A stretch of DNA of 64,000 nucleotides from an uncultured Actinomycetes bacterium (GTDB lineage Bacteria > Actinomycetota > Thermoleophilia > UBA2241): contig CAVWDG010000009.1 in NCBI GenBank assembly GCA_963753695.1, positions 73,975-137,974 of the forward strand. The letters run 5' to 3'. The position numbers and the translations under genes are program-made. Below the pieces are notes generated by a model. It made no database searches and was not told where the DNA came from. It worked only from the letters and a program-made list of their open reading frames with translations. Positions 33,364 to 54,139 of the stretch are shown in pieces. Each line of letters starts with the position of its first letter. Position 1 is the stretch's first letter.

Positions 33364-34083
33364 TCAGGGCGCGGTCGGGCCCGAGCTCAGGCCGGCGTGG
33401 CCGTCCGTGGCGTCGAACGGCGGCATGACGCCCTCGAGCATGCGGTACAGGACGCGGCAGGGGTTGGCGAGGTCGAGCGAGGGGTCGATCGCGGCCTGGA
33501 TGGCGAGACCGTCGATCACCGCCGACAGCAGCTGCGTGAGGCCCAGAAGGTCCGGGTCGTCGAGCGTTCCCGAGGGGGTGGCGACGCCCAGCCACTCGAG
33601 CTTGAGGCCCCAGTACCAGCGGTACAGCAGGGCGATCCGCCGCCGCAGCCCTTCGTCGCGCAGCACGTGGGGCAGCATCTCGAAGAACACGCGGAACTCC
33701 TCGGCGGCGCCCGCCATGCGGCGTACCTCTTCGGCGAGCTGCTGCGCGCGGCGTGTGGGGCTCACGTCTTTCATGCGGTTCTGAGAGGCGATGTACTCGT
33801 CGTGGATCACCGAGTCGAGCACGGCCGCGACGAGTCCGGCCTTATTGCCGAAGTAGTAGGAGATCATCGCCTTGTTCTCGCCCGACGAGGCGGAGACGGC
33901 GTTCAACGTGAGCGCGTCGAAGCCGTGGGTGGCGATGAGGCGCTTGGCGGCCAGCAGCAGCTTCCGGGCGGTCTCGGGCAGTGCCGGCAGAGGGTCTTTG
34001 AACACTACCTGTGGCCGGCGCACCACGTCGGGCGCCTGGGCTCCCGCGAGAGGCGGCTTGCCCCTGGCCCTTTCGGTCTTCAC
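33364..34083 (-). CDS. TetR family regulator
   Basis: LTLNAVSASSGENKAMISYYFGNKAGL HTH; divergent from the FAD oxidoreductase gene. Confidence 0.9.
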   Translation of the reverse strand: MKTERARGKPPLAGAQAPDVVRRPQVVFKDPLPALPETARKLLLAAKRLIATHGFDALTLNAVSASSGENKAMISYYFGNKAGLVAAVLDSVIHDEYIASQNRMKDVSPTRRAQQLAEEVRRMAGAAEEFRVFFEMLPHVLRDEGLRRRIALLYRWYWGLKLEWLGVATPSGTLDDPDLLGLTQLLSAVIDGLAIQAAIDPSLDLANPCRVLYRMLEGVMPPFDATDGHAGLSSGPTAP

Positions 34084-34104
34084 GATGCCCCCCTACGTCG
34101 AGCG

Positions 34105-34128
34105 CCACTGACTGACCGGTCGATTAGC
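34105..34128. promoter_or_regulatory. Shared operator, copy 1
   Basis: CCACTGACTGACCGGTCGATTAGC; 21 of 24 positions match the copy at 51142. Confidence 0.72.
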
Positions 34129-34280
34129 TCGCCGGGAATCTTACCAGACCAGTCAACGGGCGCGGCCGGTATGGCTCCAGGCGGTGGCGATGCGTCGCCG
34201 GGCCGGCTCCGCGGCGGCGACGCGCCGCCGGCGGCCGACCCGCTGCGCTATGCTTGGCCGTGAACGCCAGCGGAGGCCGC

Positions 34281-35639
34281 GTGAGAACCATCGAAGAAGG
34301 GCCCAGGACGACCCCCGTCCTGTGCGAGACCGACGTGCTCGTCGTGGGCGGTGGCCCCGGCGGCCTGGCGGCGGCCGTGAGCGCGGCGCGCGAGGGCGCG
34401 CACACGACGCTCCTCGACCGCTACGGCTGCTTCGGCGGCGTCATCACCCAGGTCGGCATAGAGAGCGTGGCCTGGTATCGGCACGAGGGCACGACCGACC
34501 TCGAGGGCATCGGCATCGAGTTCGAGCAGCGCGCCAAGGCCTTCGGCGGCACGCAGGCCGAGTGTCAGTCGATAAGCGAGGCCCTCGACCCCGAGCTCTT
34601 CAAGTGCGTCGCCGACGAGCTGGTGCGCGAAGCCGGCGTGCAACCGCTGCTGCACTGCCTCGCGGTCGCGCCCATCGTCGCAGACGGAGCGGTCGGCGGG
34701 GTCGTGGTCGAGAGCAAGTCGGGGCGCCAGGCCGTTCTCGCGCGCCGCGTGATCGACGCCACCGGCGACGCCGACCTCGCCTACCGCGCCGGGGCGCCCT
34801 GCCGCACGACGCCGGTGGCCGAGATGATGGGCGTGAGCGTCGTCTTTTCGTGCTCCGGCGTCGATCGCGAGCGCTTCTTCGACTACGTGAGCGAGTGCGC
34901 GCCCACCTACAAGGACTGGACCGCCGGCTGGCGCATGGAGACGAGCGGCAAAGAAGACGATCTCTTCAGCCCCTTCCTGCAGGAGCCGTTCGACCTGGCG
35001 CGCGCCGCCGGCATCATCCCGGAGAGCATCACCAGCATCGGCGGCACCTGGAGCCGGATCTCCGACTCCGGCGAGGCCACCGGCCTCAACCTGGTCTACC
35101 TGTCGGGCTACGACTGCACCGACGTGACCGATCTCACGCGCGCCGAGATCGAGGGCCGCCGGCAGGTGCTGCTCGCCATCGAGGCCCTGCGGCGTTTTGC
35201 GCCGGGCTTTGCCGGCGCCCGCCTGCGCAACTTCGGCATGACCCTCGGCACGCGCGACTCACGCAAGATCCGCGGCCGCTACGAGCTCACCGCGCACGAC
35301 GTGCGCGGTGAGGCGCGCTTTGCCGACTCGGTCGGCATCTTCCCTGAGTTCATCGACGGCTACGGCGCCCTGGTGCTGCCCACCACGGGGCGCTACTTTC
35401 AGGTGCCCTACGGCGTGCTGGTGCCGCAGGGGGTCGAGAACCTGCTGGTCGCCGGGCGCTGCGTGGCGGGCGACCGGGTGGCGCACGCGGCCACGCGCAG
35501 CCAGATGTGCTGCGCCGTGACCGGCCAGGCGGCCGGCGCCGCCGCCGCCGTCTCGCTGCGCGACGGCACGACCACCTCGGGGGTCGCCGTGAGGCGAGTG
35601 CAGGCCGCTCTCGAACGCCAGGGCGTGCGGCTCTTCTGA
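34281..35639 (+). CDS. FAD-dependent oxidoreductase (FAD_oxidored-like family)
   Basis: DVLVVGGGPGG, VIDATGDADL, YFQVPYGVLVP..VENLLVAGRC. GTG 34281 with GGAGG SD. Confidence 0.88.
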   Translation: MRTIEEGPRTTPVLCETDVLVVGGGPGGLAAAVSAAREGAHTTLLDRYGCFGGVITQVGIESVAWYRHEGTTDLEGIGIEFEQRAKAFGGTQAECQSISEALDPELFKCVADELVREAGVQPLLHCLAVAPIVADGAVGGVVVESKSGRQAVLARRVIDATGDADLAYRAGAPCRTTPVAEMMGVSVVFSCSGVDRERFFDYVSECAPTYKDWTAGWRMETSGKEDDLFSPFLQEPFDLARAAGIIPESITSIGGTWSRISDSGEATGLNLVYLSGYDCTDVTDLTRAEIEGRRQVLLAIEALRRFAPGFAGARLRNFGMTLGTRDSRKIRGRYELTAHDVRGEARFADSVGIFPEFIDGYGALVLPTTGRYFQVPYGVLVPQGVENLLVAGRCVAGDRVAHAATRSQMCCAVTGQAAGAAAAVSLRDGTTTSGVAVRRVQAALERQGVRLF

Positions 35640-35783: not shown

Positions 35784-35837
35784 CTACTAATTAACCGGTC
35801 AATCTCTCTTGCCATACCGCGAAACAGCTTGTATGGT
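35784..35837 (+). promoter_or_regulatory. Shared operator, copy 2, plus sigma70-type promoter
   Basis: CTACTAATTAACCGGTCAAT (35784-35803) just upstream of TTGCCA (35809-14)-N17-TATGGT (35832-37). Confidence 0.72.
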
Positions 35838-35929
35838 GCGACAAATGTGGTTAGGGCCGGAGAAGTCGTGCCGGCGCCGCGCCCAGTCCGGTCCGCGTCG
35901 CGGGTCTGAGCTCAGGGGGAGTATCGAAC

Positions 35930-37615
35930 ATGGACGACCAAGAGTACCGTAGGGAATATGGCCAGCACCTTGTAGAGCAGGTCATCAACGGCCAGATGAC
36001 CAGGCGCCAGCTGCTCGTGCGCGCTTCGGTCTTTGGCCTCTCCGCCACCGTCGTCGGCTCGCTCCTCGCAGCGTGCGGCAGCTCCGGCGGCTCGTCCGCG
36101 ACGTCGCCCTCGGCGGCCGCCAGCGGTAGCGCCCTTCCGCCCGTCGTCACCGGCGGCACGCTGAAGGCAGTCATTCCGCCGCCGCTCAAGACGCTCGACC
36201 CGGTCACGATCTACGACCAGGGCGGCATCGTCATGGTCTACCAGATCGCCGAGTACCTGATCGACCTCTCCAACACCAACGCCCTCAAGCCCAAGCTCGC
36301 TCTCAGCTGGACTCCCAACCAGAAGGGCGACGTCTGGACCTTCAATCTGCGCCAGGGCGTCACGTTCAACGACGGCACTCCCTTCGAGGCCGCCGACGTG
36401 GTCGCCAGCATCGAGCGCGTGATCAACCCCAAGAGCGGTTCGGGCGCCCTCGCCGCCCTCGCCGGCATCCTCTCGCCGGGCGGCACCAAGGCCACCGACA
36501 CGCACACCGTGACCTTCAACCTCGACAAGCCCTTCGCCGACTTCCCGTACCTGGTGAGCTCGTCGTCGTACAACACGGCCATCCTGCCGCGTAACTACGC
36601 CGGCGACTTCCAGAAGAAGCCGATCGGCACCGGCCCCTGGATGGTCAAGACCTACGTCCCCAACCAGCACGCCGATCTCGTCAAGAACCCGACCTACTGG
36701 GGCAAAGACGCTCAGGGTCGCCAGCTGCCGTACCTCGACGGGCTCAACTTCGCGTTCGTCACCGACACCTCGGCCGCCAACCTGCAGCTCCAGTCGGGCG
36801 CCGTCGACGTGCAGCCGCAGACCGTGTTCCAGGGCGGCGCGTCGGTGCTCAGCGATTCCGCTCTGCGCGTCGACGTCTACCCGTCCAGCGGTATCCGCGA
36901 GGTCGCCTTCAACGTCACCAAGGCGCCGTGGACCGACAAGCGCGTCCGCCAGGCCGTGGCGTACAGCCTCGACCGCAAGGCCATCAACCAGGCCCTCTAC
37001 GGCGGCCGCAGCAACCTCGGCTACGACACCTTCTGGGAGCCGGCTGTCTTCCCGGGCAGCCCGCCCTCGACCGTGCGCACCCAGGACTACGCCAAGGCCA
37101 AGTCGCTGCTCTCTGCAGCCGGCCACACGAGCCTCGACGTCACGCTGACCGTGGCCAACTACCTCGAGAACCCGGCCTACGCGCAGCTCATCCAGGCGCA
37201 GTGCAAGCCGGCCGGCATCAACGTCAAGATCAACGAGATCAGCTACAACGCGATCTACGCCGGCACCAACGCCACCACGCCGTGGCTGAACGCGCCGATG
37301 GTCATCGTCGAGTGGGGCAGCCGGCCTACGCCGGGCGTCTACGCTCAGGCCATGCTGCTGCCGACCAGCGCCTGGAGCTCCTCGCACTGGAACAACCCGG
37401 CCTTCGTGAAGGCCTTCAACGCGTACGAGTCGACCACCGACGAAGCGAGCCGCACCACGCTGGCCACGCAGCTCTCCTCGATCCAGCAGGACGACACGCC
37501 GATCCTCGTGGCGTTCTACATCTCGCAGCTGCGCACCCAGAAGAAGAACGTCTACAACATCCAGGGTCCGGGCTCGTTCTACTTCGACGCCAGCCAGGCC
37601 TACATCACCAAGTGA
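35930..37615 (+). CDS. ABC substrate-binding lipoprotein (family 5, Dpp/Opp-like), Tat-type signal
   Basis: TRRQLL twin-Arg, LAAC lipobox, WTFNLRQGVTFNDG, PIGTGPW. Confidence 0.92.
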   Translation: MDDQEYRREYGQHLVEQVINGQMTRRQLLVRASVFGLSATVVGSLLAACGSSGGSSATSPSAAASGSALPPVVTGGTLKAVIPPPLKTLDPVTIYDQGGIVMVYQIAEYLIDLSNTNALKPKLALSWTPNQKGDVWTFNLRQGVTFNDGTPFEAADVVASIERVINPKSGSGALAALAGILSPGGTKATDTHTVTFNLDKPFADFPYLVSSSSYNTAILPRNYAGDFQKKPIGTGPWMVKTYVPNQHADLVKNPTYWGKDAQGRQLPYLDGLNFAFVTDTSAANLQLQSGAVDVQPQTVFQGGASVLSDSALRVDVYPSSGIREVAFNVTKAPWTDKRVRQAVAYSLDRKAINQALYGGRSNLGYDTFWEPAVFPGSPPSTVRTQDYAKAKSLLSAAGHTSLDVTLTVANYLENPAYAQLIQAQCKPAGINVKINEISYNAIYAGTNATTPWLNAPMVIVEWGSRPTPGVYAQAMLLPTSAWSSSHWNNPAFVKAFNAYESTTDEASRTTLATQLSSIQQDDTPILVAFYISQLRTQKKNVYNIQGPGSFYFDASQAYITK

Positions 37616-37650
37616 CGACCGTAGCAAGAAACTGACGTAAGGGGACCGGG

Positions 37651-38598
37651 ATGGGGCGCCTCATCGGGCGGCGACTGCTGCTCATGGTACCGACGCTTAT
37701 TCTGGTGTCGATCCTCGTGTTTGCCTTGGCAGAGGTCCTGCCGGGCAACGTGGGGCGCTTCATCCTCGGTCCCTACGCCACGCAGTCGGCCGTCGACCAG
37801 CTCAACCGCAACCTGGGCATGGACAAGCCCATCTACGTGCGGTACGTCGAGTGGGCCGGCCACTTCGTCACCGGCCACTGGGGCACGTCGCTCCAGTACA
37901 GCACACCGGTGTCTTCCATCGTGTGGCACGCCTTGGGCAACTCGTTGCTCCTGGCCGGTTTCGCCCTGGTGATCATCGTGCCGACGTCGATCCTCGTCGG
38001 CGTCTATGCCGGCCTGCGACGCGACAGCTTCATCGATCGGGCTATCACCATCTCGTCGCTCTCGATGACCGTCATTCCCGAGTTCGTGAGCGGCGTCATC
38101 CTCATCGTGGTGTTCGCCGTCACCCTGCACTGGCTGCCGGCGGCCGCCATGCCGCCGCAGGGTTCGCCCTTCATCGACCGCTTCTACTACCTCATCCTGC
38201 CGGCCATCCCGCTCATGCTGATCGAGCTCGGCTACATCGCGCGCATGGCTCGCGTGGGCACTGTGCAGGTGCTCAACATGCCCTACATACGCACGGCCGT
38301 GCTCAAGGGCCTGCCAAAGCGCCGCGTCGTCTTCGGCCATGTGCTGCGCAACGCCCTGGTACCGACCGTCACCGTGATCGGCAGTCAGGTCGGCTGGCTG
38401 ATCGGCGGTCTCGTGGTCATCGAGTTCCTGTTCGTCTACCCGGGCATCGGCAACTACATGGTCAATGCGGCCCTCAACCACGACCTGCCGTTGCTCGAGG
38501 CCTGTGTGCTGGTCATCGCGCTGATCTACCTGTTCTCCAACTTGATCGCCGACATCGTGGTCGCGCTGCTCAACCCGCGCATCCGCATGGGGGGCTGA
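37651..38598 (+). CDS. ABC permease (DppB-like)
   Basis: EAA-like loop YIRTAVLKGL; VLRNALVP. Confidence 0.92.
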   Translation: MGRLIGRRLLLMVPTLILVSILVFALAEVLPGNVGRFILGPYATQSAVDQLNRNLGMDKPIYVRYVEWAGHFVTGHWGTSLQYSTPVSSIVWHALGNSLLLAGFALVIIVPTSILVGVYAGLRRDSFIDRAITISSLSMTVIPEFVSGVILIVVFAVTLHWLPAAAMPPQGSPFIDRFYYLILPAIPLMLIELGYIARMARVGTVQVLNMPYIRTAVLKGLPKRRVVFGHVLRNALVPTVTVIGSQVGWLIGGLVVIEFLFVYPGIGNYMVNAALNHDLPLLEACVLVIALIYLFSNLIADIVVALLNPRIRMGG

Positions 38599-38599
38599 G

Positions 38600-39493
38600 G
38601 TGGCGGCCACCAGCCCCGACCGCCAGATGGACGAGCTGCAAGCCGACGCCGCGGCGTCGGCCGAATCGCGCCGCCAGCGCCGCTACCTCGTCAAAACGCT
38701 GCTGCGCAGTCCCACGTTCGTCACCGGCTGCCTCATCGTGCTCTTCTGGATCGTCATGGGCGTCTTTTCGACCCTGTTCACGCAAGCTCCAGCCTTGCCC
38801 CACCCGTTCGCCATTCTGCAGTCGCCCAGCGGCTCGCACTGGTTCGGTACCGACGACCTCGGGCGCGACGTGTTCGCGCGCACCATGGCCGGCGCCCGCA
38901 CGGTGCTCATCATCGCGCCGCCCGCCACCATCCTCGCGCTCCTGTGGGGCGGCATGGTCGGCCTCATCGCCGGCTTTCATCGGGGCCTGCTCGACGACGT
39001 CATGATGCGCATCGTCGACGCCTTCCTGGCGCTGCCGATCATCATCACCTCGATCCTCGTCATCACGCTGCTCGGCAGGTCGTACGCCGTCCTCATCGTC
39101 GTCATCGGGGCGCTGTTCACGCCGGTGGTCTCGCGTACCATCCGCTCGGCGGTCATCGGCGAGCGCGAGCGCGAGTACGTCATGGCGGCGCGTCTGCGCG
39201 GCGAGCGCTCGGCGTTCATCATGGCGCGCGAGATCCTGCCCAACATCACGCAGCCGATCATCGTCGAGGGCACGGTGCGCCTGGGCTACGCCGTGTTCAC
39301 CGTCGCCACGCTGTCGTTCCTCGGCTTCGGGCTCGAGCCGCCTTCGCCCGACTGGGGCCTCACCGTCGCGGTCGAGCGGGCCAACCTGCAAGCTGCGCCG
39401 TGGACGGTGCTGTTCCCCGCCTTGGCCCTTGCGTCGCTGGTGGTGGGCGTCAACCTCGTGGCCGACGGCCTGAGCTCGGTGTTCTCCAAATGA
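38600..39493 (+). CDS. ABC permease (DppC-like)
   Basis: HWFGTDDLGRD, EYVMAARLRG, LSFLGFG..PPSPDWG. Confidence 0.92.
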   Translation: MAATSPDRQMDELQADAAASAESRRQRRYLVKTLLRSPTFVTGCLIVLFWIVMGVFSTLFTQAPALPHPFAILQSPSGSHWFGTDDLGRDVFARTMAGARTVLIIAPPATILALLWGGMVGLIAGFHRGLLDDVMMRIVDAFLALPIIITSILVITLLGRSYAVLIVVIGALFTPVVSRTIRSAVIGEREREYVMAARLRGERSAFIMAREILPNITQPIIVEGTVRLGYAVFTVATLSFLGFGLEPPSPDWGLTVAVERANLQAAPWTVLFPALALASLVVGVNLVADGLSSVFSK

Positions 39494-41682
39494 GCGTCGT
39501 GGACCGGCCCGTCGTCCCCGAGGGACCGACGCCGCCGGCGCTCGACGTCCACGACCTCGAGGTCACGTTCCATCGGCGCGGCCGCGACCTGCCGGTGCTG
39601 CGCGGCGTCACGCTGCACATCAAGCCGGGCGAGGCCTACGGTCTGGTCGGCGAGTCGGGCTGCGGCAAGACCACGCTGGCCATGGCGGCCCTGCGCTACC
39701 TGGCCGCCAACGGCACCGTCGACGCCGGCAAGGTGTCGGTCGAGGGCCGCGACGTGAGCACGCTCTCAGACGAGGCGCTGCGCAAATGGCGCGGCGAGGC
39801 CGTCTCCATGGTCTATCAAGACCCGGCCACGGCGCTCAGCCCCGCCATGCGCGTCGGCGACCAGGTCGCCGAGGTCTTCCGCTACCACGAGGGCCTGCCC
39901 AAAAAAGAAGCGTTGATCCGCGCCCGGGAGAGCCTGCGCAAAGTCGCGCTGCCCGACCCCGACGCCACCATGCGGCGCTACCCGTTCGAGCTCTCGGGCG
40001 GCCAGCAGCAGCGTGTCGTGATCGCCATGGCGCTGGCCGTGAACCCCCACCTGCTGGTGCTCGACGAGCCCACCACCGGGCTCGACGCCACGGTCGAGGC
40101 CGAGATCCTCGACCTGATCGAAGAGCTGCGCGGCCGTATTCACGCCGCCATCCTGCTGATCACCCACAACCTGGGCCTGGTGGCGCGCCTTTGCGAGCGC
40201 GTCGGCGTGCTCTACGCCGGGCGCCTGGTCGAAGAAGGGCCGGCGCACCAGATCTTCACCGACCCGCGCCACCCCTACACCATGGGGTTGCTGCGCTGCG
40301 TGCCGAAGTTCGGCATGAACAAGACCGACGCCGCGTTGCAGACCATCCCCGGCACGCTGCCGGCGCTGGGCGAGCCGCTCGACGGCTGCGTGTACTCGGC
40401 GCGCTGCCCGGTGGCCAAGCCGGTCTGCACCAGGCGCGAGCCTGACCTCTTCGCCTGGCCCAGCGATGCGCCGGCCGAGGGGCGCGCGTGGGCCGAGGCG
40501 CAGCCGCCCGACCCCGCCATGTTCTCGCCGCATCACTCCAACCCCGTGGGCGATGCCGCCCGCCATTCGCGCTGCTATTTCGCCGCTGATGTCCCCGACA
40601 TGCCGCACGGCACGCCCGTGCTGGCCACGAGCCTCGAAGTCCGGGTAGGCACGGTCGGCGACGTGCTCGACATCGAATCGATGCGGCGCAGCTTCAGAGA
40701 CGGCAGCAAGAGGCTGACGGCCGTGAGCGACGTCTCGCTTAGCCTGCGCCGCGGCGAGACCTTCGGCCTGGTCGGCGAGTCGGGCAGCGGCAAGACCACG
40801 CTGGCCAAGTGCATCACAGGCCTGATCGCCGCCGACTCCGGCACGGTCACCTTCGAGGGTAAGCAGCTGCGCTCCACCGCGGGCCGCCGCTCGCAAGAGG
40901 CGCTGCGCGCCATCCAGATGGTCTTCCAGAACCCCGACTCCACGCTCAACCCCGCCTGGAGCACGCGCGCCATCCTCACGCGCGCGGTGCGCAAGCTGGG
41001 CAGCGGCGGCGGGGTGCGCGCCAAGGTCGACAAGCTCTCCGCCGACGTGCGGGTCGAGCCGCGCTTTTTGGCGCAGAAGCCCACCGACCTGTCGGGCGGC
41101 CAGAAGCAGCGCATCGCCATCGCGCGCGCCTTCGCCGGCGACCCCACCCTCGTGGTGTGCGACGAGCCCGCGTCGGCGCTCGACGTCTCGGTGCAGGCGA
41201 GCATCCTCAACCTGCTCGTCGAGCTGCAGACCAAAGAGCAGGTCTCGTATGTCTTCATCTCGCACGACCTGGCGGTCGTGCGCTACATCTCCGACCGCAT
41301 CGGCGTTATGTACCTGGCCGAGCTGATCGAGGTGGGCTCGGCCGACGAGGTCTTCAACGCGCCGCACCACCCCTACACCGAGGCGCTGCTGTCGTCCATT
41401 CCCAAGCTCGAGTTCGGCGTGGAGCAGCAGCGCATACCGCTGCGCGGCTCCATGCCCAGCCTGAGCGAGCCGCCGACCGGCTGCCGCTTTCACACCCGCT
41501 GCCACAGGTTCCTCGGCGACATCTGCGTGCAACAGGAGCCGCCGCTGCAGGAGCCGGCCAGCGGCCACACCTACAAGTGCCACATCCCGCCCGACGAGCT
41601 CCTGGCCGCCCAGCTGATCACCGCGGGCGCTTCGGCGACGCCCGATCCTGCGGGCGAGCCCGGCGGGCCCAGCGACTCCTAG
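39490..41682 (+). CDS. Fused DppD/DppF ABC ATPase
   Basis: Two NBDs (GESGCGKT and GESGSGKT; LSGGQ twice) with C-terminal Cys motifs; ATGA overlap. Confidence 0.92.
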   Translation: MSVVDRPVVPEGPTPPALDVHDLEVTFHRRGRDLPVLRGVTLHIKPGEAYGLVGESGCGKTTLAMAALRYLAANGTVDAGKVSVEGRDVSTLSDEALRKWRGEAVSMVYQDPATALSPAMRVGDQVAEVFRYHEGLPKKEALIRARESLRKVALPDPDATMRRYPFELSGGQQQRVVIAMALAVNPHLLVLDEPTTGLDATVEAEILDLIEELRGRIHAAILLITHNLGLVARLCERVGVLYAGRLVEEGPAHQIFTDPRHPYTMGLLRCVPKFGMNKTDAALQTIPGTLPALGEPLDGCVYSARCPVAKPVCTRREPDLFAWPSDAPAEGRAWAEAQPPDPAMFSPHHSNPVGDAARHSRCYFAADVPDMPHGTPVLATSLEVRVGTVGDVLDIESMRRSFRDGSKRLTAVSDVSLSLRRGETFGLVGESGSGKTTLAKCITGLIAADSGTVTFEGKQLRSTAGRRSQEALRAIQMVFQNPDSTLNPAWSTRAILTRAVRKLGSGGGVRAKVDKLSADVRVEPRFLAQKPTDLSGGQKQRIAIARAFAGDPTLVVCDEPASALDVSVQASILNLLVELQTKEQVSYVFISHDLAVVRYISDRIGVMYLAELIEVGSADEVFNAPHHPYTEALLSSIPKLEFGVEQQRIPLRGSMPSLSEPPTGCRFHTRCHRFLGDICVQQEPPLQEPASGHTYKCHIPPDELLAAQLITAGASATPDPAGEPGGPSDS

Positions 41683-45188: not shown

Positions 45189-45257
45189 GGTGGCGATCCT
45201 TTTTCTACTCGCTTGGTGTGTCGGACTGTACGGCCGGGCCGGTCTCTGATGCCCTGG

Positions 45258-46694
45258 TCAGTGGAAGATCGGGTAGGAACGCTCGAGGATGCCGTCGGTG
45301 GCCGTGCCGATGCTCTGGTAGACGGTGCGGTTCATCTGGTGGTAGACGTCGGCGTTGGCCGGGTGCGACGCGAACGACTCGCGCGCTTTGGTCATGCGGG
45401 CCACGGCCGTGTCGAAGTCGGGGTAGACGCCCGTGGCGACCGCCGCGCAGATGGCGGCGCCCAGGCTCGCCCCGCCGCTTGCCACACAGCGCGACGAGGG
45501 GATGCCGAAGACGTCGGCGAAGATGCTCATGAACAGGTCGCTGGCGGCGCCGCCGCCCGAGACGGCGATCGCCTCGAGCGTGATGCCGAGCTCGTCGCAC
45601 ATGGCGTCGACCTTGTTCTTCATGGTGAGGGCGATGGCTTCGAGGATCGAGCGGTAGACGTGCGCCCTGGTGTGGCGCGCGTCGAAGCCGATCATGACGC
45701 CCTTGCGGAAGGGCTTGTCGTCGGGCGCCAGCCAGTCGAGCACGGTCATGAGGCCGTCGCTGCCCGGCGCCACAAGCTGCGCCTCGCGTTCGAGGTAGAG
45801 CTCGCGCGAGATGCCGGAGGTGGCGGCGGCCTGGGCGAACTCCTCACCCAAAAGGTCGAGGAACCAGGTGATCGTCCACATGCCGCGGCGTATGCCGTGG
45901 CTTTCGTAGAGGTACTTGTGCGGCGCGCAGGCGAAGTTCGTCCAGAACTCGGTGGGCGTCTTTCTGTTCTCGTGGCCGTGCACCATGGAGGCGATGTAGG
46001 TGCCCAGCGAGACCAGCGCGGTCTTCTCGTCGATCGCGCCCGAGCCCAGCGCCTCGGTCGCCTTGTCGTTGGCCGTGGTGACCACCGGGAGTCCGACGGG
46101 GATGTCGGTCACCGCCGCGGCGGCGGCGGTGACGTAGCCGGCGACATCGCCCGGCATCTGCAGTTCGAACAGCATCTCGCGAGGTATGCTCCAGCGCTCG
46201 AAGGCCGCCTGGTCGTCGCTCCACTGCCACGTGTCGGTGTCGATCGGCCACTGACCCTCGATGTTGTTGGCCGCGCTGTCGTTGAAGCGCCCCGTGAAGC
46301 GGTGCGTGATGTAGCCCGACGAGGTGGTCACGTAGGCGGTCTCGGGGTTGTCGTGCGAGTAGGGGCGGTAGGCGCGCGTGTCCATCCAGCTCATCACGGG
46401 CGACGACAGCGTGCCGTCGCGCTTGAGGAAGGCGCGTTCGCAGCGGATGGTGCACAGGCCGAGCCCGATGATGTCGGCGGGGTCGCCGGTGAAGGCCGCC
46501 ATGGCGTGCCGGCTGGCCGCGGTGATCGTGTCCCAGAGGTCGTCGTCGGGGTGCTCCACGACGCCGTTACGCGGGCGGCTCATGGCTCGCAGGACCTGCC
46601 GGCCCTGACAGACGACGTTGCCCTCGAGGTCGAAGACGACCACCTTGGCGCTCTGCGAGCCGGCGTCGATTCCGATGATGTACTTGCCCGACAT
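45258..46694 (-). CDS. FGGY sugar kinase (YgcE-like)
   Basis: YIIGIDAGSQS, EHPDDDLW, SLGTYIA, YGIRRGMWT-like segment, GLMTVLDWL. Confidence 0.88.
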   Translation of the reverse strand: MSGKYIIGIDAGSQSAKVVVFDLEGNVVCQGRQVLRAMSRPRNGVVEHPDDDLWDTITAASRHAMAAFTGDPADIIGLGLCTIRCERAFLKRDGTLSSPVMSWMDTRAYRPYSHDNPETAYVTTSSGYITHRFTGRFNDSAANNIEGQWPIDTDTWQWSDDQAAFERWSIPREMLFELQMPGDVAGYVTAAAAAVTDIPVGLPVVTTANDKATEALGSGAIDEKTALVSLGTYIASMVHGHENRKTPTEFWTNFACAPHKYLYESHGIRRGMWTITWFLDLLGEEFAQAAATSGISRELYLEREAQLVAPGSDGLMTVLDWLAPDDKPFRKGVMIGFDARHTRAHVYRSILEAIALTMKNKVDAMCDELGITLEAIAVSGGGAASDLFMSIFADVFGIPSSRCVASGGASLGAAICAAVATGVYPDFDTAVARMTKARESFASHPANADVYHQMNRTVYQSIGTATDGILERSYPIFH

Positions 46695-46774
46695 CGTTGA
46701 TCTCTGCTCCCTGGTCATGAGTTGCTTGCGAGCCGGCCGACGGGCCTTGAGCGCGAGTCTGGCGCCGCGTCAGA

Positions 46775-47551
46775 CTAGCGGACCAGATAGCCACCATCCA
46801 CCAGCACGACGTGGCCGTTGACGTAGTCGGAGGCCCTGCTGGCGAGAAAGACGACGGCGCCCATGAGGTCGGCCGGGTCGCCCCAGCGGCCGGTGGGAAT
46901 GTGGTCGAGCACACGCTTGTTGGTCCCGGGGTTGCTGCGCGTCTGCGTGGTGATCTCGGTGGCGTAGTAGCCCGGCGCGATGCCGTTGACCTGGATGTTG
47001 TGCTGGGCGAGTTCGTCGCAGTAGGCCTTGGTGAGCCCGGCGATGCCGTGCTTGCTGGCGGCGTAGGCCGACGACCACTGTCCGCCCAGGTAGGTGAAGA
47101 CGGAGCAGATGTTGATGATCTTGCCGCTGCGCTGCGGGACCATGAGCTTGGCGGCCTCGTGGCTCATCTCGAAGGCGGCCGTCAGGTTGACCGCGATGGT
47201 GGCGTCCCACTGCGGCCGCCCGAAGTCGAAGACGTCGGCGAGCGGGCACACGCCCGCGCTGTTCACGAGGATGTCGAGCGAGCCGAAGCGCTCGACGCAG
47301 GCCGCGACGATCTGCTTGGGCACGCCGGGCGCCGTGATGTCGGCCTTCATGAACTCGTAGCGGCCGCCCGCGGCCGCGATCAGCGGACCGGTCGTGCCGT
47401 CGTCGTCGACGATGCTCGGCACGAGCACGTTGGCGCCGCCCTTGGCGAGCGCCAGGGCGAAGGCTTGGCCGAGACCGGTGTTGCCGCCGGTCACGACGGC
47501 GTTCTTGCCGTTCAGCGAGAAGAACTCCATCGTGAAATCGCTGATCTCCAT
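46775..47551 (-). CDS. SDR oxidoreductase (YgcW/KduD-like)
   Basis: TGGNTGLG, NSAG, YAASK catalytic motif, VDGGYLVR. Confidence 0.92.
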   Translation of the reverse strand: MEISDFTMEFFSLNGKNAVVTGGNTGLGQAFALALAKGGANVLVPSIVDDDGTTGPLIAAAGGRYEFMKADITAPGVPKQIVAACVERFGSLDILVNSAGVCPLADVFDFGRPQWDATIAVNLTAAFEMSHEAAKLMVPQRSGKIINICSVFTYLGGQWSSAYAASKHGIAGLTKAYCDELAQHNIQVNGIAPGYYATEITTQTRSNPGTNKRVLDHIPTGRWGDPADLMGAVVFLASRASDYVNGHVVLVDGGYLVR

Positions 47552-47774: not shown

Positions 47775-47805
47775 GAGCGCTTGCTCGGCTCCCGCTCAAG
47801 CGCTC
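47775..47805 (-). terminator. Hairpin at 3' end of the dehydrogenase gene
   Basis: GAGCGCTTG...CAAGCGCTC 9 bp stem. Confidence 0.45.
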
Positions 47806-48718
47806 ACTCGGGCTCCAGCTCGGCCGGGAACCCGGGCGCGCGCAGGTCGGTGCCCACGGCGTCCTCGAGCATCTTGACGACCATGGGCGACTGCGCGTCG
47901 CCGCCGTACAGGGCGCGGGCCCGGGCGAAGATCTGCTCGGTGAGGCCGGCGAGCTCGAGCGGCACGCCGAACTCGCGCCCCATCTGGTGAGCGAAGTAGA
48001 GGTCCTTGCGCGCCAGGTCCATGGTGAAGTTGATGTTGTAGCTGCCGTTCAGGATGAGCTGGCCCTCGGTCTCGTGCACGAAGCTGTTGCCCGAGCTCGC
48101 CTTGATCACGTCCCACGCCGTCTTTAGGTCGACACCGCTGCGCTTGGCCAGCATGAGCGCCTCGCCGTCGGCCACGAGGTGGATGAAGGCGAGCATGTTG
48201 GTGATCACCTTGATGGCCGACGCGCGGCCCAGCTCGCCGATGTAGAAGACGCGGTCGCCCATCGCCTGCAGGACCGGCAGGTGGCGCTCGTAGACGGCTT
48301 GCTCGCCGCCGACCAGCACGGTGATCATGCCGGCCGCGGCGCGGTGCACGCCGCCGGTCACCGGCGACTCGAGCACAGAGACGCCCTGCTCGGCCGCCAG
48401 GGCCGCGAGGCGCTGCAGCTCGTGGGGGTCGTTGGTGCTCATGTCGACCCAACTGCCGCCCGAGGCCAGGCCTTCGAGGATGCCCCGCGGGCCGGCCGTC
48501 ACCGCGGTCACGGCTTCGGGCGAGGGCAGGCAGGTGATGACCGTGTCGGAGAGGCGCGCCACGGCGGCCGGCGAGTCGGCCCAGGCGGCGCCCGCCTCGA
48601 GCAGCTCGTGCGCGGCCTTGGGGTCGATGTCGTGGACGGTCACCGTAAAGCCGGCGCGCAGCAGGCTGCCGGCCAGGTGGCGGCCCAGACTGCCCAGACC
48701 GATGTAGCCGATCTTCAT
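47804..48718 (-). CDS. NAD(P)-dependent dehydrogenase, 3-hydroxyisobutyrate DH family
   Basis: IGYIGLGSLG, ESPVTGG, catalytic Lys in AIKVITN. Confidence 0.9.
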   Translation of the reverse strand: MKIGYIGLGSLGRHLAGSLLRAGFTVTVHDIDPKAAHELLEAGAAWADSPAAVARLSDTVITCLPSPEAVTAVTAGPRGILEGLASGGSWVDMSTNDPHELQRLAALAAEQGVSVLESPVTGGVHRAAAGMITVLVGGEQAVYERHLPVLQAMGDRVFYIGELGRASAIKVITNMLAFIHLVADGEALMLAKRSGVDLKTAWDVIKASSGNSFVHETEGQLILNGSYNINFTMDLARKDLYFAHQMGREFGVPLELAGLTEQIFARARALYGGDAQSPMVVKMLEDAVGTDLRAPGFPAELEPE

Positions 48719-48802: not shown

Positions 48803-50263
48803 CTACTGGTGTCGCGCGCGACGGATGTCGTCGGGGCCTGCCTGGCAGATGGCGGCCAGGCCGTCGATCTGCTCGTCGCTCAGGCAGGGCTCCTTGGCGG
48901 CATGCGCGGCCAGCAGGCGCTCGACCGTGTCGCAGGCCACGTCGTTCTCGGTGCGGCCCTCTTCGAGCCACTTGTCGTAGGAGAGGCGGTTCGACACGCC
49001 CGGTTGCAGGTGCTCGCCCGCGCGCACGCGGCGCGCCGTGTCTTTCTCGCCGAGAAAGCCGCCCCCCGGACCCACCCGGGCGATGGACTCGGCGGCCAGC
49101 GTGGCGTCGGAGACCTCGACGTCGCCGTAGAGGCGGCGCACCATGGCGGCGATCTCGTCGTCGACGACCGACTGCGGGAGGTACATGGTGTTGTGCGAGT
49201 CGATCAGGCCCCAGCCCGTGACGATGTCGGGGTTGGCGCTGCACACGCCGGCTGCCTTGAGGGCCTTCTCGTAGCCGGTCTGCAGCCCCGCATGCTTGCT
49301 GTCGGTCGACAGCCCGGGACTCAGCGTGGGCACGCCCACGTAGTGGCCGACCTCGGTGGCCATGGCGGCCATGAGGGCGCTCTCGACACAGCCCAGCGAG
49401 AAGGTCGTGCGCAGCATGTCGAGCACGCCGGAGCCAAAGCAGAAGATGAGCCGCGCCCCGGGCGCGGCGACCTGCAGCGCGGTGGCGACGCCCAGGAACT
49501 CGGCGAGCCCCTGCACGACCGAGCCGGCCAGCGTGACCGGCGAGGTGGCCCCGGCGATCGTCATGGAGTAGACCTCGATGGGTATGCCCAGGGCGGCCAG
49601 CGCGACGTGCACGTCGAGCACCGGCCCTTCGACCTGGAGCGGCGAGGCGGCCGTGCAGACCGTCGAGAAGCGCGGCCGCTCGCGGAACGCGTCGAGGCTG
49701 CCCGAGAGCACCTCGCAGATGCGCACGACCGCGTCGACCTCGTTGGGGCAGTCGACGAAGGTCACGTGCTGCGCGGTCTCGGTGAGCATGGTGAAGTACT
49801 CGATGAGCTCGCGGCGCTCGAGCGCGACGTCGGTGGCGCTGACCTGGGTCCACATGAGATCGAGCTGCGGGAGCTCGTCCATGAGCGCCGTGCACTCGCG
49901 CAGGTCCTGCAGCGTGCTGGGGCGGCGCGCGCCCGTGCGAAAGTCGAGCGTCTTGGCGACGCAGCCGCTGGGCGCAAAGCGGAACTGCTGGTCGGCGCCG
50001 ATCAGGGCGTCGTCGGCCGGCGTGGCGCCGGCCATCGTGAAGGAGCGTGGACACTGGGCGATGGCCCACTCGACCAGCTCGCGGGGCAGGCGGACGATGC
50101 CGGTGGCCTCGTCGACCTGGGCGCCGCGCGCGGCCAGCAGGGGCAGCACGCGAGAACCGGCCAGGCGCATGCCCACCGTCGCCAGCAGGTCGATGGCCTG
50201 GTCTGCGATGCGGCTCTTCTCGTGCTCTGAGAGCCACGCGGTCCGTGCCTTCACAAGCCTCAC
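48803..50263 (-). CDS. Non-pyrrolysine MttB-superfamily methyltransferase
   Basis: GATSPVTLAG, PGLSTDSK (Ser at the Pyl-equivalent position), QTGYEK; no internal stop; GTG 50263. Confidence 0.88.
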   Translation of the reverse strand: MRLVKARTAWLSEHEKSRIADQAIDLLATVGMRLAGSRVLPLLAARGAQVDEATGIVRLPRELVEWAIAQCPRSFTMAGATPADDALIGADQQFRFAPSGCVAKTLDFRTGARRPSTLQDLRECTALMDELPQLDLMWTQVSATDVALERRELIEYFTMLTETAQHVTFVDCPNEVDAVVRICEVLSGSLDAFRERPRFSTVCTAASPLQVEGPVLDVHVALAALGIPIEVYSMTIAGATSPVTLAGSVVQGLAEFLGVATALQVAAPGARLIFCFGSGVLDMLRTTFSLGCVESALMAAMATEVGHYVGVPTLSPGLSTDSKHAGLQTGYEKALKAAGVCSANPDIVTGWGLIDSHNTMYLPQSVVDDEIAAMVRRLYGDVEVSDATLAAESIARVGPGGGFLGEKDTARRVRAGEHLQPGVSNRLSYDKWLEEGRTENDVACDTVERLLAAHAAKEPCLSDEQIDGLAAICQAGPDDIRRARHQ

Positions 50264-50382
50264 ACACCTTCCCTCGGGCCGCAGTCCGCGCGCCGGTGCG
50301 CGGGCTTGGCGGCGGCCCGCGCGGCGCGTCCGCAGGGACCGTTCGCAGGGCACGATGTCACCAGCCTCAGGCGGTGTCAACC

Positions 50383-50472
50383 CGAAACGTTTCGTTCCAA
50401 CGACAATCTACAGAAATGCTTGTCTTTGCAATGCAGATACTTGAACTGGCGGTGTGAAAGCGCAAGTATTGT
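50383..50472. promoter_or_regulatory. Divergent control region with palindromes
   Basis: Perfect CGAAACGTTTCG (50383-94); inverted ATACTTG/CAAGTAT pair in an AT-rich stretch. Confidence 0.5.
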
Positions 50473-50509
50473 GCATTCGCGCTGAGTATCGGCAGGGAGG
50501 AGCGTCGTC

Positions 50510-51082
50510 ATGATCAGAGTGGGGCAGGCCCCCTTCGGCACGGTCGCCATGGACGAGCTCGACCGCGGCATCATGCAGCTGCTGCGTCCCAACGCGCGGC
50601 GCTCCTATGCCAGCGTCGCGCGCGCCCTCGGCGTCTCCGAGCCCACGGTGCGCAACCGCGTCGACCGCCTCATCGCCAAGGGCGCCATCTTTCAGCGGGC
50701 GAGCGTCAACCCCGCGGCCATCGGCCTCCCCGTCGATGCCATGGTCGGCATCCGCGTGAACCGCGGGTACTCCAAGGGGGTGGGCGCGCGCCTCGCCGCC
50801 ATGGAGAACGTAGCCTACGTGGGCTACACCACAGGCTCGTTCGACATCCTGATCGAGGCGCACCTGCCCGACAACGAGGGCCTCTACAAGTTCTTGAACG
50901 AGGACCTCGAAGAGATCGAGGGCGTGGCCTACACCGAGACCTGGCACATCCTGCGCACCGACAAGACCAACATCGAGTGGGAGGGCGAGATGGTCGGGCA
51001 CGCCCCCATCGAGGTCGTCGACGACCTCGAAGCGGGCACCGCCGACGCGACGGCCGACGATCTCGAACCGGCCGGCGCCTGA
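50510..51082 (+). CDS. Lrp/AsnC family regulator
   Basis: MDELDRGIMQLLRPNARRSYASVARALGVSEPTVRNRV; TTGSFDILIE. Confidence 0.92.
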   Translation: MIRVGQAPFGTVAMDELDRGIMQLLRPNARRSYASVARALGVSEPTVRNRVDRLIAKGAIFQRASVNPAAIGLPVDAMVGIRVNRGYSKGVGARLAAMENVAYVGYTTGSFDILIEAHLPDNEGLYKFLNEDLEEIEGVAYTETWHILRTDKTNIEWEGEMVGHAPIEVVDDLEAGTADATADDLEPAGA

Positions 51083-51141
51083 CGGCGCCGGCCCTGCGAT
51101 CGGCGGCGCTTGACAAGCCTCGCCGGGCAGTGTCTGATGGG

Positions 51142-51165
51142 CTACTAATTGACCGGTCGATTAGC
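51142..51165. promoter_or_regulatory. Shared operator, copy 3
   Basis: CTAATTGACCGGTCGATTAG, near-perfect 20 bp palindrome (51145-64), 35 bp upstream of mtbB. Confidence 0.78.
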
Positions 51166-51199
51166 ACGACCGCCATGGCGTGATCTGGGAGGGGTAAGC

Positions 51200-52618
51200 G
51201 TGACGATCGAAGGACGGGTGCCGACCCGCATGGGCGACGGCACCTTCGTACGCCTGACGCGCAGCGAGATCAAAGCCGATCTCGTGGCCGGGTCAGAGGC
51301 GGCGGCCAAGCGGGCCAAGGTGCCCCCGCTGCACGGACGACGAGCTGGACCACCTGCTCGACATCTACGCCTCGTCGGCGCGCTTCACCGGCGTCGACAT
51401 AGGCGACGAGATCGTGCTCAGCTGCGACGGCACCGGCATGAAGACACACGCCACCCGCATCCAGGACCTGCAGACCTACGAGCAGTGGATGGGCGCCGAC
51501 CTGCTCGAGCTGTGCGTGGGCGACTACTCGCTCAAGGTCGTGCGCACCAACCTCGCCTACGAGGCGCAGTACATGCACGACGCCCAGCTCTGCACGGTGG
51601 CGCCGCTGCAGTACGGCGTGATGCCCAACCTGGGCCTCTACTCCAAGCCCGACGGACCCGTGCGACAACTGGAACGAGCTGCTGCCGCTGGGCCGCATCG
51701 ACGAGGCCCGCGCGTCGCGAAGAAGAGGCCGTCGAGATGGCCGTCGTCGACATGGTCGACCTGGCCGACACGCAGTGACGAGGCCGGCGCCGACGCCATC
51801 GACTGGGACACCACCGGCGCCTCGGGCGACCCCGAGTTCCTGGCCGCGCCTCAAGGCCGACCGCCATCATCCGCGAGAAGTACCCTGACCTTGGCATCCA
51901 GCTCGGCATGGCCGGCGAGTTCGTGCTCGGCATGCACGGCCAGCTCGAGTACGAGGGCGTGCGCCTGGCCGGCCTGTGGCCCAAAGACCAGCTGCTGCTC
52001 GCCCAGAAGGCCGGCGCCACCATGTTCGGACCGGTCGTCAACGTCAACACCGGCAAGACCTGCGCCTGGAACATCGCCCGGGCGATCGCGCTCGTCAAGC
52101 CGTGCATGGACGTGGCCGACGATCCCGGTGCACATGAACGCCGGCATGGGCGTCGGCGGCGTGCCGATGTTCGTGCACCCGCCGGCCGACGCCGTCTGCC
52201 GGGCGGCCAAGTCGTGCGTCGACATCCTGCACGCTCGACGGCTTCTAGGTAGGCTCGGGCGATCCGCACGGCATGCACAGTGCGCACGCGCAGGCGGCGG
52301 GCATGGGCGGAATGCGAGCAGCCGGAGATCTGGTGGCTCGCATGCAGATGACCCGCGGAATGCGTTTGAAAGAGGCCAAAGAGTACGTCGCCGGCAAGCT
52401 CGGCGTGACGCCGTTCGACCTGTCCGACCCCGTCGCCATGACCGACGTGCGCAACGAGTTCGGCTTTGGCCGCATCCACAGCTACGCGATCCGCCAGCCG
52501 CGCGCAGGCCAATCAGATCGAGGCCAAGTTCAACATCGCGCGCGTGCTCGACATGCCCATCAACTGCGTCGAGCGCTTCAAGGAACGTACGACGCCGGTC
52601 GCCGGCGGCGTGCGCTAG
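51200..52618 (+). CDS. mtbB: Dimethylamine:corrinoid methyltransferase MtbB with in-frame amber (putative Pyl); many apparent indels
   Basis: GGGAGGGG SD plus GTG; TRMGDG, PNLGLY..PDGP, LGMAGEFVLGMHG, PVVNVNT, HMNAGMGVGGVPM, LDGF-TAG-VGSGDP..MRAAGDLVARMQ..EAKEYVAGKLG. Confidence 0.88.
52312..52343 (+). promoter_or_regulatory. Candidate PYLIS-like stem-loop 3' of the mtbB amber codon
   Basis: ATGCGAGC-A-GCCGG-AGAT-CTGGT-G-GCTCGCAT, 13 bp including 2 G-U pairs; 63 nt after TAG. Confidence 0.5.
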
Positions 52619-52644
52619 CGAAGGGCACCGATGGGAGGGCGGCG

Positions 52645-54139
52645 ATGATTCGCAATCCACGCGCCGGCGCGCGCAAGAGCGGCGGCTTTCGGCTCGAGGT
52701 GTTCACCGACGACGAGCTGCGCGAGATCCACCTCGCGACGCTCGAGGTGCTCGGCCGCACCGGCGTGTTCGTCGAAGACGACGAGGCGCTCGAGATCTTC
52801 GCCCAGGCGGGCGCCGACATCGACCGCGAGCGTCGCGTCGTCTGCCTGCCGGCCCACCTGGTCGAAGACGCGGTCGACGCCGCGCCCTCCACGGTCGTGC
52901 TCTGCGGGCGCGACCCGGCCAACGATGTGGTCCTAGAAGACGGCCGCGTCGGCTTTACCAACTTCGGCGAGGGCATCCAGGTCGTCGATCCCTACACAGG
53001 CGAGCTGCGCGAGTCGCGCAAGGCCGACGTGGCCGACTGCACGCGCCTGATCGACGCCCTGCCCGAGATCGACGTGGTCGAGCGTCCCCTCGGGGCGCAC
53101 GACGTGCCGCCCGGACACGGCGGCCCTGCACAATGCCGAGGCGATCTTCTCGAACACCACCAAGCACGCCACCATCGGCCCGCTGTCGGGCTTCTGCGCG
53201 GTCAAGATGATCGACATGGCGGCCGCCATCGCGGGGGGCCGCGACAGCTTGCGCAAGCGCCCCATCCTGTCGTTCCTCACCTGTCCGGTGAGCCCCCTCA
53301 AGCTCGTCGCCGACGCCTGTCGCATCATCATCGAAGGGGCCCGGGCCGGAGTGCCGGTCAACGTGCTGTCGATGGCCATGGCCGGCGGCTCGTCGCCGAT
53401 CAACCTGGCCGGCACGCTGGTCACCCACAACGCCGAGGTGCTCGCCGGCATCACGCTGGCCCAGCTCACCGTGCGCGGCGCGCCCGTGATCTACGGCTCG
53501 TCGACCACCGCCATGGACCTGCGCTACGCGAGCGCGTCGGTGGGCAGCCCCGAGTGCGGCATGATCGGCGCCGGAGTCGCCTGCCTGGCGCGCTTCTATC
53601 TGCTGCCCAGCTGGGTCGCCGGTGCGTAGGGCGATGCCAAAGTGGCGGACGCTCAATCCGGTCACGAGAAGACACTCACCAGCCTGCTACCGGCGTTGGC
53701 AGGGGCCAATCTGATCTATGGGCTGGGGATGTTGGAATCGGGCGTCACCATCGACTACGCGCAACTCGTCATGGACGCCGAGTTCGCGCGCATGATCAAA
53801 TTCTGCGTGCCGGGCATCGCGGTCAACGACGCGACCCTGTCGGTCGACGTCATCGCCGAGATCGGCCCGTTCAGCGACTTTCTCTCGCACGACGACACCT
53901 ACCGCGGCATGCGCGGCCAGTCGCGCTCCAAGCTCATCGACCGGCGGGTCCGCGAGGAGTGGGTCGCCGCCGGCTCGACGACGATCTACGAGCGCTCGCG
54001 TGCCGAAGCCTGCCGCCTGCTCGAGACCCACCAGCCGCAGCCCCTGCCCACCGAGGTGGCCGCCGAGCTTGCCGCCATCATCGCGGCGGCCGAACGGGAG
54101 CTCGGGGTGGGGCAGGGCGCAGAAGACCGCGTAGGGTAA
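52645..54139 (+). CDS. mttB: Trimethylamine:corrinoid methyltransferase MttB with in-frame amber (putative Pyl); one apparent indel near 53110
   Basis: [89 protein letters not shown]. Same frame on both sides of TAG; ends at TAA; about 497 codons. Confidence 0.93.
53683..53703 (+). promoter_or_regulatory. Candidate PYLIS-like stem-loop 3' of the mttB amber codon
   Basis: CCTGCTA-CCGGCGT-TGGCAGG, 7 bp stem; starts 54 nt 3' of TAG. Confidence 0.42.

Follow-up and report, generated by a model that had tools for sequence, protein, structure and literature searches.

The DNA analysed here is a stretch of 64,000 nucleotides (the window) on the 169-kb contig C9 (CAVWDG010000009.1) of a metagenome-assembled genome (MAG) of the class Thermoleophilia (Actinomycetota), which comprises 2.13 Mb in 16 contigs and is 62% complete. 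Positions 33364-54139 of the window hold an island of genes predicted to serve the use of methylated amines. At its end lies a tandem mtbB-mttB pair for putative dimethylamine (DMA) and trimethylamine (TMA) methyltransferases, each with an in-frame TAG codon at the pyrrolysine (Pyl) position of its family. As GC makes up about 70% of the window throughout, genuine genes were chosen by their third-position GC; they were named by Pfam and NCBIfam. The following genes and operators were assigned:

33364-34083, minus strand: TetR-family regulator with a BetI-type C-terminal domain (Pfam TetR_N 43.3 bits, TetR_C_6 33.4 bits)
34108-34127, no strand assigned: operator O1, CTGACTGACCGGTCGATTAG, between the TetR and FAD oxidoreductase genes; kept in the congeneric MAG G002 (L022 position 1030)
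34254-35639, plus strand: flavin adenine dinucleotide (FAD)-dependent oxidoreductase (PF12831), divergent from the TetR gene (Pfam FAD_oxidored 309 bits)
35787-35806, no strand assigned: operator O2, CTAATTAACCGGTCAATCTC, about 125 nt ahead of the gene for the solute-binding protein; kept in G002 (L022 position 2639)
35930-41682, plus strand: Dpp/Opp-type ATP-binding cassette (ABC) importer as a whole (Pfam)
35930-37615, plus strand: SBP_bac_5 binding protein (Pfam)
37651-38598, plus strand: importer permease 1 (Pfam)
38600-39493, plus strand: importer permease 2 (Pfam)
39490-41682, plus strand: fused double ATPase of the importer (Pfam)
41786-42832, minus strand: electron transfer flavoprotein (ETF) alpha (Pfam ETF_alpha)
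42829-43716, minus strand: ETF beta (Pfam ETF)
43746-45188, minus strand: FAD-linked (GlcD-like) oxidase (Pfam; NCBIfam under the equivalog cut-off)
45258-46718, minus strand: FGGY kinase (Pfam; NCBIfam under the equivalog cut-off)
46775-47551, minus strand: KduD-like short-chain dehydrogenase/reductase (SDR) (Pfam; NCBIfam under the equivalog cut-off)
47804-48718, minus strand: dehydrogenase like 3-hydroxyisobutyrate dehydrogenase (HIBADH)/tartronate-semialdehyde reductase (Pfam; NCBIfam under the equivalog cut-off)
48803-50380, minus strand: non-Pyl methyltransferase of the MttB superfamily, without in-frame TAG (PF06253 237.9 bits)
50510-51082, plus strand: Lrp/AsnC-family regulator, divergent from the non-Pyl MttB operon and directly upstream of mtbB (Pfam HTH_AsnC-type, AsnC_trans_reg)
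51145-51164, no strand assigned: operator O3, CTAATTGACCGGTCGATTAG, a nearly perfect palindrome, 36 nt ahead of the GTG start of mtbB
about 51200-52619, plus strand: mtbB, Pyl-type dimethylamine:corrinoid methyltransferase, GTG start (PF09505)
52645-54139, plus strand: mttB, Pyl-type trimethylamine:corrinoid methyltransferase (PF06253)

An earlier note, written from the sequence alone, had placed the TAG codons of the tandem genes at the Pyl positions, and this was borne out for both. In mttB the TAG (53627-53629) aligns exactly with residue 334 (K334 = Pyl334) of Methanosarcina barkeri MttB in the structure PDB 7XCM. It stands in the motif LPS-[WY]-VAG-x-O-[GS]-DAKV, which reads LPSYVAGS-O-SDAKV in 7XCM, and is kept in six of six orthologues. 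The C-terminal piece of 341 residues alone reaches 520.8 bits on the TIGR02369 model (cut-off 525), and the N-terminal piece gives a further PF06253 match of 67.5 bits. In mtbB the codon at 52246-52248 is the TAG of the column DG-[LF]-TAG-VG-x-GDP, followed by VGSGDP in the window. Eight aligned family members show no variation in this column, and all six orthologues have TAG there; across the family, a single TAG, always in the same column, is present in more than 100 mtbB copies. The pieces of the window mtbB cover positions 4-462 of PF09505 in six segments, and the G002 orthologue (94% identical) scores 414.8 bits on TIGR02368, where the cut-off is 369.1. A solved MtbB structure in which the Pyl column could be compared does not exist.

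Downstream of the TAG, the ratio of non-synonymous to synonymous changes (N/S) among five intact orthologues amounts to 0.48 for mtbB and 0.89 for mttB, where a neutral ratio would be about 2.5-3 by our own estimate. The codons behind the TAG are constrained, which argues that translation runs beyond it, and would thus pass the TAG of both mtbB and mttB, in this lineage. Look-ups for records of post-TAG mttB products made from internal start codons found none.

At its 3' end the window mtbB also stops with TAG (52617-52619), and the G002 orthologue stops with TGA; if UAG were read as Pyl there, the window MtbB would gain nine codons up to the next TGA. In mttB, the Logan contig L111 (ERR11718638_4571096) has a TGA at window position 53804-53806, in place of the Cys codon (TGC or TGT) that stands in the window and in every orthologue. 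This is more likely to be a read error or a nonsense variant; a Cys/selenocysteine (Sec) variant is conceivable, and a tRNA-Sec is found in the genome.

The remaining parts of such a system were expected by the earlier note to lie outside the window, and genes or candidates for all of them (pyl genes, tRNA-Pyl, corrinoid proteins, activator, methyltetrahydrofolate transferase) were found elsewhere in the assembly. ARAGORN locates tRNA-Pyl(CUA) on contig C11 at c[39920-39992]. Around it, on the minus strand, pylB, pylC, pylD, pylT and pylSn form one cluster, with pylSc about 4 kb off. The encoded proteins score above the cut-offs of their models: PylSn 124.8 bits (cut-off 51; TIGR03912), PylB 423 (348; TIGR03909), PylC 331 (248; TIGR03910), PylD 170.9 (150; TIGR03911) and PylSc 277 (178; TIGR02367). 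The set for Pyl biosynthesis and decoding, i.e., tRNA-Pyl, PylSn, PylSc, PylB, PylC and PylD, is complete.

The accessory proteins were assigned at the domain level only. Corrinoid proteins were detected, one encoded near pylSc and two directly after a second mtbB-mttB pair on contig C2; the TIGR02370 scores are 213.7 and 214.4 bits, just under the cut-off of 215.3. A RamA-like activator is encoded at C4:6770-7495 (RACo_C_ter 256.9 bits). Candidates for the pterin-binding methyltransferase lie at C5:18770-19402, beside a RamA-like gene, and at C11:115770-116387 (Pterin_bind 73 and 71 bits), so that these candidates adjoin RamA-like and MttB genes. The RamA-like (RACo_C_ter) gene next to the C5 candidate, the second of its kind (C5:17037-17818), is in four frame pieces with an internal TGA and TAG. 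The second mtbB-mttB pair (C2:33636-37855; L002 8636-12855) follows genes for a Dpp-type solute-binding protein, Lrp, a non-Pyl MttB and TetR and precedes the two corrinoid-protein genes; its mttB is intact and has one TAG.

If the TAG codons were ordinary stops, mtbB and mttB would be truncated relics or split genes and no Pyl would be inserted. TAG is a common stop in this genome: among 807 confident open reading frames (ORFs) it ends about 36%, TGA 53% and TAA 11%, so UAG is not reassigned genome-wide. However, the complete pylT, Sn, Sc, B, C and D set, every protein of it over its equivalog cut-off, stands against this explanation, as do the exact position of the mttB TAG at Pyl334 of a solved MttB, the single TAG in one column of the mtbB family and the conserved, constrained sequence that follows it. 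Furthermore, Actinobacteriota express Pyl-type mttB and mtbB in published metatranscriptomes (PMC10805028). We therefore regard ordinary stops as highly improbable. As TAG is a common stop alongside a complete Pyl system, Pyl decoding must be conditional or context-dependent.

The genome encodes about 24 MttB-superfamily paralogues, only two of which contain TAG. Elsewhere in the window, at 25090-28029 on the minus strand, ORFs of 490, 103 and 387 amino acids stand in one frame and are parted only by TAG codons (26560-62 and 26251-53). An additional Pyl gene at 25090-26559 (minus strand) was considered and rejected; the read-through product gave no Pfam match and nothing indicates that these TAG codons are decoded.

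Apart from the TAG, neither mtbB nor mttB is an open frame in the window, a feature on which the text of the earlier note is silent. The reading frame of the window mtbB falls apart into six or more segments, and PF09505 matches it in six pieces in different frames. The disruptions were mapped by alignment against five orthologues (L016-L020) from other species of the genus, which are 84-93% identical. In mtbB this gave eight insertion events (51332, 51656, 51717, 51777, 51856-57, 52118, 52233 and 52501), and in mttB a single inserted G at 53113 splits the frame. All nine events are insertions without a single deletion, and all are unique to the window. When the ten inserted bases are taken out, mtbB and mttB are full length with a single TAG each and no other stop. 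The mttB insertion is absent from L016-L020, and the two halves of mttB abut in frame in about 20 related loci.

Such breaks may be local consensus errors of the MAG assembly, or they may be real. In the second case a species or strain would be losing its DMA and TMA methyltransferases, and mtbB and mttB would be recent pseudogenes in a genome where the Pyl machinery and other Pyl genes persist. A first analysis with a plot of the GC content at third codon positions (GC3) in each frame and with stop-to-stop ORFs suggested pseudogenes. The confinement of the errors to mtbB and mttB amid clean neighbouring genes, together with the neutrally decayed look of the second mtbB on C2, then spoke for real decay. 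This was largely overturned by two further results, frameshifts in essential genes and an independent contig.

The essential groEL (C11:120509-122081, found by profile search) has one inserted T in ATGGAAG[T]CGGTCC, which splits its frame, and glmM (C11:146927-148241) shows at least three frame switches within about 250 nt. The rpoC gene (4.3 kb) is intact in the same assembly. Since groEL and glmM are broken but rpoC is clean, the indel errors of this assembly are patchy. A scan of the whole genome for frameshift patches by GC3 phase missed even the known ones and was dropped. Among such long-contig MAGs, this noise is not limited to the host genome (G000): G002 (contig C34) seems to have lost a single base at each of two places (corresponding to window positions 35884 and 36811) in its SBP_bac_5 gene, which is intact in the window.

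The independent contig, which is the strongest evidence for an artefact, is L110 (ERR11718638_2699016), a Logan contig of run ERR11718638, which encodes the identical Lrp protein and shows zero differences from the window over 49754-51233 (1,480 nt). It lacks all five insertion events that it spans (51332 to 51856-57), and the first 242 MtbB codons are open. Inside mtbB, however, 24 substitutions and 8 gap positions separate L110 from the window. The orthologues share the Logan base at 10 of these substitutions and the window base at 4. In view of these differences L110 may derive from a co-occurring strain and not from the same molecule, and a collapse of two haplotypes is a plausible source of a noisy consensus. 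The already mentioned L111 confirms the region 53545-54986 with three substitutions and no indels, and keeps the mttB TAG.

The codon changes specific to the window lineage bear on both explanations. In mttB, 28 are synonymous and 7 non-synonymous, which means that constraint is not relaxed and purifying selection persists. For the window mtbB the ratio of non-synonymous to synonymous changes is raised to 16:22, compared with 6:17 and 4:20 in the two closest orthologues, and this fits decay; about 8 indels to 15 excess substitutions is a proportion well beyond what neutral decay would give. The second mtbB on C2 has 12 insertions and 9 deletions (21 indels) as well as 137 unique substitutions spread evenly over the codon positions, and of its unique codons 76 are non-synonymous and 42 synonymous, a near-neutral proportion. 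Genuine decay, a mosaic or a very noisy patch may account for this copy. When compared for paralogue mixture, it shares its unique bases with paralogue states at 0.44-0.71, about as an ordinary divergent orthologue does.

Real pseudogenes would further agree with the breakage of both mtbB copies of the genome, with the finding of only these 2 copies where most genomes of the family have 6-12 matches, with the intactness of about 20 other window genes relative to their G002 orthologues, and with the splitting of several MttB-family paralogues and one RamA-like gene. Against this stand the nine insertions without deletion, the unrelaxed mttB, the same sort of break in groEL and glmM, and the open mtbB of L110 with its identical flank. 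With orthologues intact in at least nine congeneric species, a true loss would moreover be a strain polymorphism at most. We consider real pseudogenes improbable. Because mtbB is open in L110 and groEL and glmM are frameshifted as well, the breaks in the window are most likely consensus errors, and we are strongly inclined to regard them as a local product of the MAG assembly and not as biology.

Besides the TAG codons, the island is marked by a 20-bp palindrome with three matches to CTAATTGACCGGTCGATTAG in the window, where zero are expected in shuffled sequence. O1-O3 are the sole strong sites in the 2.13-Mb assembly. All three are conserved in G002, and about 25 related loci from Thermoleophilia have O3 at an equal distance before mtbB. 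The product of the adjacent TetR gene (33364-34083) is the obvious candidate to bind the palindrome. The earlier note had described one operator common to three promoters, those of TetR/FAD oxidoreductase, the importer and mtbB-mttB, and this is confirmed together with its conservation in relatives. The claim that the island as a whole is co-regulated stands for these operator-bearing promoters; the non-Pyl MttB/ETF operon has no such palindrome, so that one operator for the island is true of three promoters only.

Pfam and NCBIfam also agree with the gene inventory of the earlier note, from the Lrp and TetR regulators and the divergent non-Pyl MttB to the ETF/oxidase/kinase/SDR cluster, the Dpp-type importer, the FAD oxidoreductase and the mtbB-mttB pair. 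The minus-strand operon starts with the non-Pyl MttB, followed by the HIBADH-like dehydrogenase, the SDR, the FGGY kinase, the GlcD-like oxidase, ETF beta and ETF alpha. On TIGR02369 the non-Pyl MttB reaches 323.7 bits, well below the cut-off of 525, and is therefore not a TMA equivalog. Its gene adjoins Lrp in about 20 related loci, and its PDB relatives 2QNE and 9YCE are glycine betaine methyltransferases. The top NCBIfam matches of the SBP_bac_5 protein are NikA, opine and peptide binders, every one of them far under its cut-off. For the FAD oxidoreductase (34254-35639) the NCBIfam search gave no match.

As the earlier note had supposed, the host belongs to the Actinomycetota: the records of its relatives are titled Thermoleophilia bacterium or uncultured Actinomycetes bacterium, and they originate from Danish soils, Siberian permafrost, Swedish lakes, Lac Pavin sediment and anaerobic digesters. 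From 14 kb to 64 kb (50 kb) the window and a contig of the congeneric G002 are collinear, and contig C9 is consequently not chimeric across the island. The three findings that the note itself had named as fatal to its reading were a lack of pyl or corrinoid genes, a host outside the Actinomycetota and a chimeric contig; what was found is the opposite in each case. Its suggestion of a synteny check in related MAGs gave a conserved gene order and operator.

An island of foreign origin, brought in as a binning contaminant or on a chimeric contig from a desulfobacterotal, firmicute or archaeal methylotroph, would agree with the low completeness of the MAG (62%) and with one related record labelled Alphaproteobacteria. 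That record, L040 (CAVZVP010000018.1, 'uncultured Alphaproteobacteria bacterium'), has an MtbB and an operator that nest inside the Thermoleophilia clade, and it is probably a mislabelled or mis-binned MAG. The uniform GC of about 70%, the length of the contig and its 50 kb of collinearity with a congeneric one all contradict a foreign source, as do at least ten species of the genus in which the mtbB-mttB pair has the same surroundings. In a FastTree phylogeny of 92 MtbB sequences the window copy falls into a 37-member clade made up entirely of Thermoleophilia with 100% local support, and MtbB proteins of other phyla are at most 56% identical. A foreign origin is thus scarcely credible.

The distribution among relatives extends this picture. 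In 41 relatives, mtbB was found in 24 of the 25 genomes scanned from the family, with exactly one TAG in nearly all full-length copies; among the other families of the class only one genome has mtbB. Most of the 25 family genomes have 6-12 mtbB matches, some of them in tandem arrays of 3-4; Methanosarcina has about three mtbB copies. These matches fall into at least two lineage-specific MtbB clades, the second of which holds the C2-type copies. Of the 56 species sampled from the family, 52 have PylSc, which also occurs in nine species of a second family and in none of the remaining species among the 301 sampled from the class. The layout of HIBADH and non-Pyl MttB genes on one side and Lrp, operator, mtbB and mttB on the other is repeated in about 20 species.

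Taken together, we consider it likely that the locus is a conserved methylated-amine island of anaerobic soil and peat Thermoleophilia in which UAG is translated as Pyl in selected genes, with the frameshifts most likely being assembly errors. In the proposed mechanism the BetI-type TetR repressor would sit on the 20-bp palindrome at the three promoters and be released upon binding of a methylated-amine ligand. MttB would then transfer a methyl group from TMA, and MtbB one from DMA, to a Co(I) corrinoid protein, activities that are predicted from the enzyme families, and each enzyme would use a Pyl residue encoded by its in-frame TAG. Synthesis and decoding of Pyl would be provided by the pylB, pylC, pylD, pylT and pylSn cluster with pylSc, which is encoded on another contig. 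The candidate corrinoid proteins and RamA-like reductive activator are likewise encoded elsewhere in the genome, as are the pterin-binding methyltransferase candidates, which may hand the methyl group to tetrahydrofolate. The divergent operon of non-Pyl MttB, dehydrogenases, FGGY kinase, GlcD-like oxidase and ETF might act on another amine, probably a quaternary one, and on its carbon skeleton, and Lrp may control this operon. Pyl insertion, the substrates and repressor binding in this organism are all deduced from genomic data.

Several points weigh against this interpretation. TAG is a frequent stop of ordinary genes, and MtmB was searched for in the genome and not found. A binding protein of the peptide/opine/nickel type would be an odd importer for TMA or DMA. 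The density of frameshifts in mtbB is far above that in neighbouring genes, and the second mtbB on C2 has its own load of indels and unique substitutions. Finally L110, with its 24 substitutions, 4 of which favour the window base, may represent a co-occurring strain.

A broader scenario goes further and would make Pyl a core trait of this family of Thermoleophilia from soil, peat and sediment. Its MtbB and MttB paralogues would have diversified towards larger secondary and tertiary amines, taken up by peptide/opine-type ABC import under the TetR operator, and the family would be an unrecognised methylated-amine sink competing with the methylotrophic methanogens of wetlands. We regard this as possible but doubtful. 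Methylated amines are non-competitive substrates of methanogenesis in wetlands and peat; if true, a widespread actinobacterial lineage that demethylates amines by Pyl enzymes would steer carbon away from methane.

The lineage would also be a high-GC, Gram-positive-type case of conditional UAG decoding in which TAG stays a very common stop, and the conserved TetR operator offers a concrete, testable approach to the induction of these genes. Annotation of such MAGs can easily mistake Pyl genes for truncated ones, and dense local frameshift patches in long-read MAGs can mimic pseudogenisation.

In the literature, the pyrrolysyl-tRNA synthetase has been reported in two Actinobacteria (Guo et al. 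2022, PMC9630628), and Actinobacteriota MAGs from the peat of Stordalen Mire express Pyl-encoding mttB and mtbB (Ellenbogen et al. 2023, PMC10805028). The view of the earlier note that Pyl is little described for this lineage is therefore only partly true: among the papers searched none links pyrrolysine with Thermoleophilia in substance, but both studies already report Pyl in Actinobacteria. They concern the same phylum, and the second one also the same two Pyl gene families and a peat/wetland habitat. However, each gives the trait one or two sentences, and the island, the operator, the pyl locus, the paralogue expansion and the family-wide distribution are not described there. What goes beyond these papers is the island architecture, the conserved TetR operator that joins a peptide/opine-type importer to mtbB-mttB, the family-wide occurrence of Pyl and the mtbB expansion.

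Compared with MttB and MtbB of M. barkeri (7XCL, 7XCM, 7XCN), the enzymes belong to the same families (PF06253/TIGR02369 and PF09505/TIGR02368), have the TAG at the catalytic Pyl position and need cognate corrinoid proteins and a RamA-type activator. In contrast to M. barkeri, the host is a bacterium, in which the methyl acceptor is presumably tetrahydrofolate, reached via a pterin-binding methyltransferase, instead of coenzyme M. Furthermore, there is no MtmB and no corrinoid gene inside the locus, TAG is a frequent stop (36%) and PylS is split into PylSn and PylSc.

This split, together with pylBCD and pylT, is shared with Desulfitobacterium hafniense, Acetohalobium arabaticum and Bilophila wadsworthia. 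As in these bacterial Pyl systems, Pyl would be confined to a few methylamine methyltransferase genes with TAG acting as a stop elsewhere, and many non-Pyl MttB paralogues (about 24 here) are present. Unlike those three bacteria, the host belongs to the Actinomycetota, the main Pyl family is mtbB, with its 6-12 matches in most genomes of the family, and a TetR operator links mtbB-mttB to a Dpp/Opp-type ABC importer and not to a permease of the betaine/carnitine/choline transporter (BCCT) type. The gene at 48803-50380 resembles those of the quaternary-amine enzymes MtgB, MtcB, MtpB and MtyB in that it encodes a full-length member of the MttB superfamily without TAG, and differs from them in its operon partners, i.e., the HIBADH-like dehydrogenase, SDR, FGGY kinase, GlcD-like oxidase and ETF.

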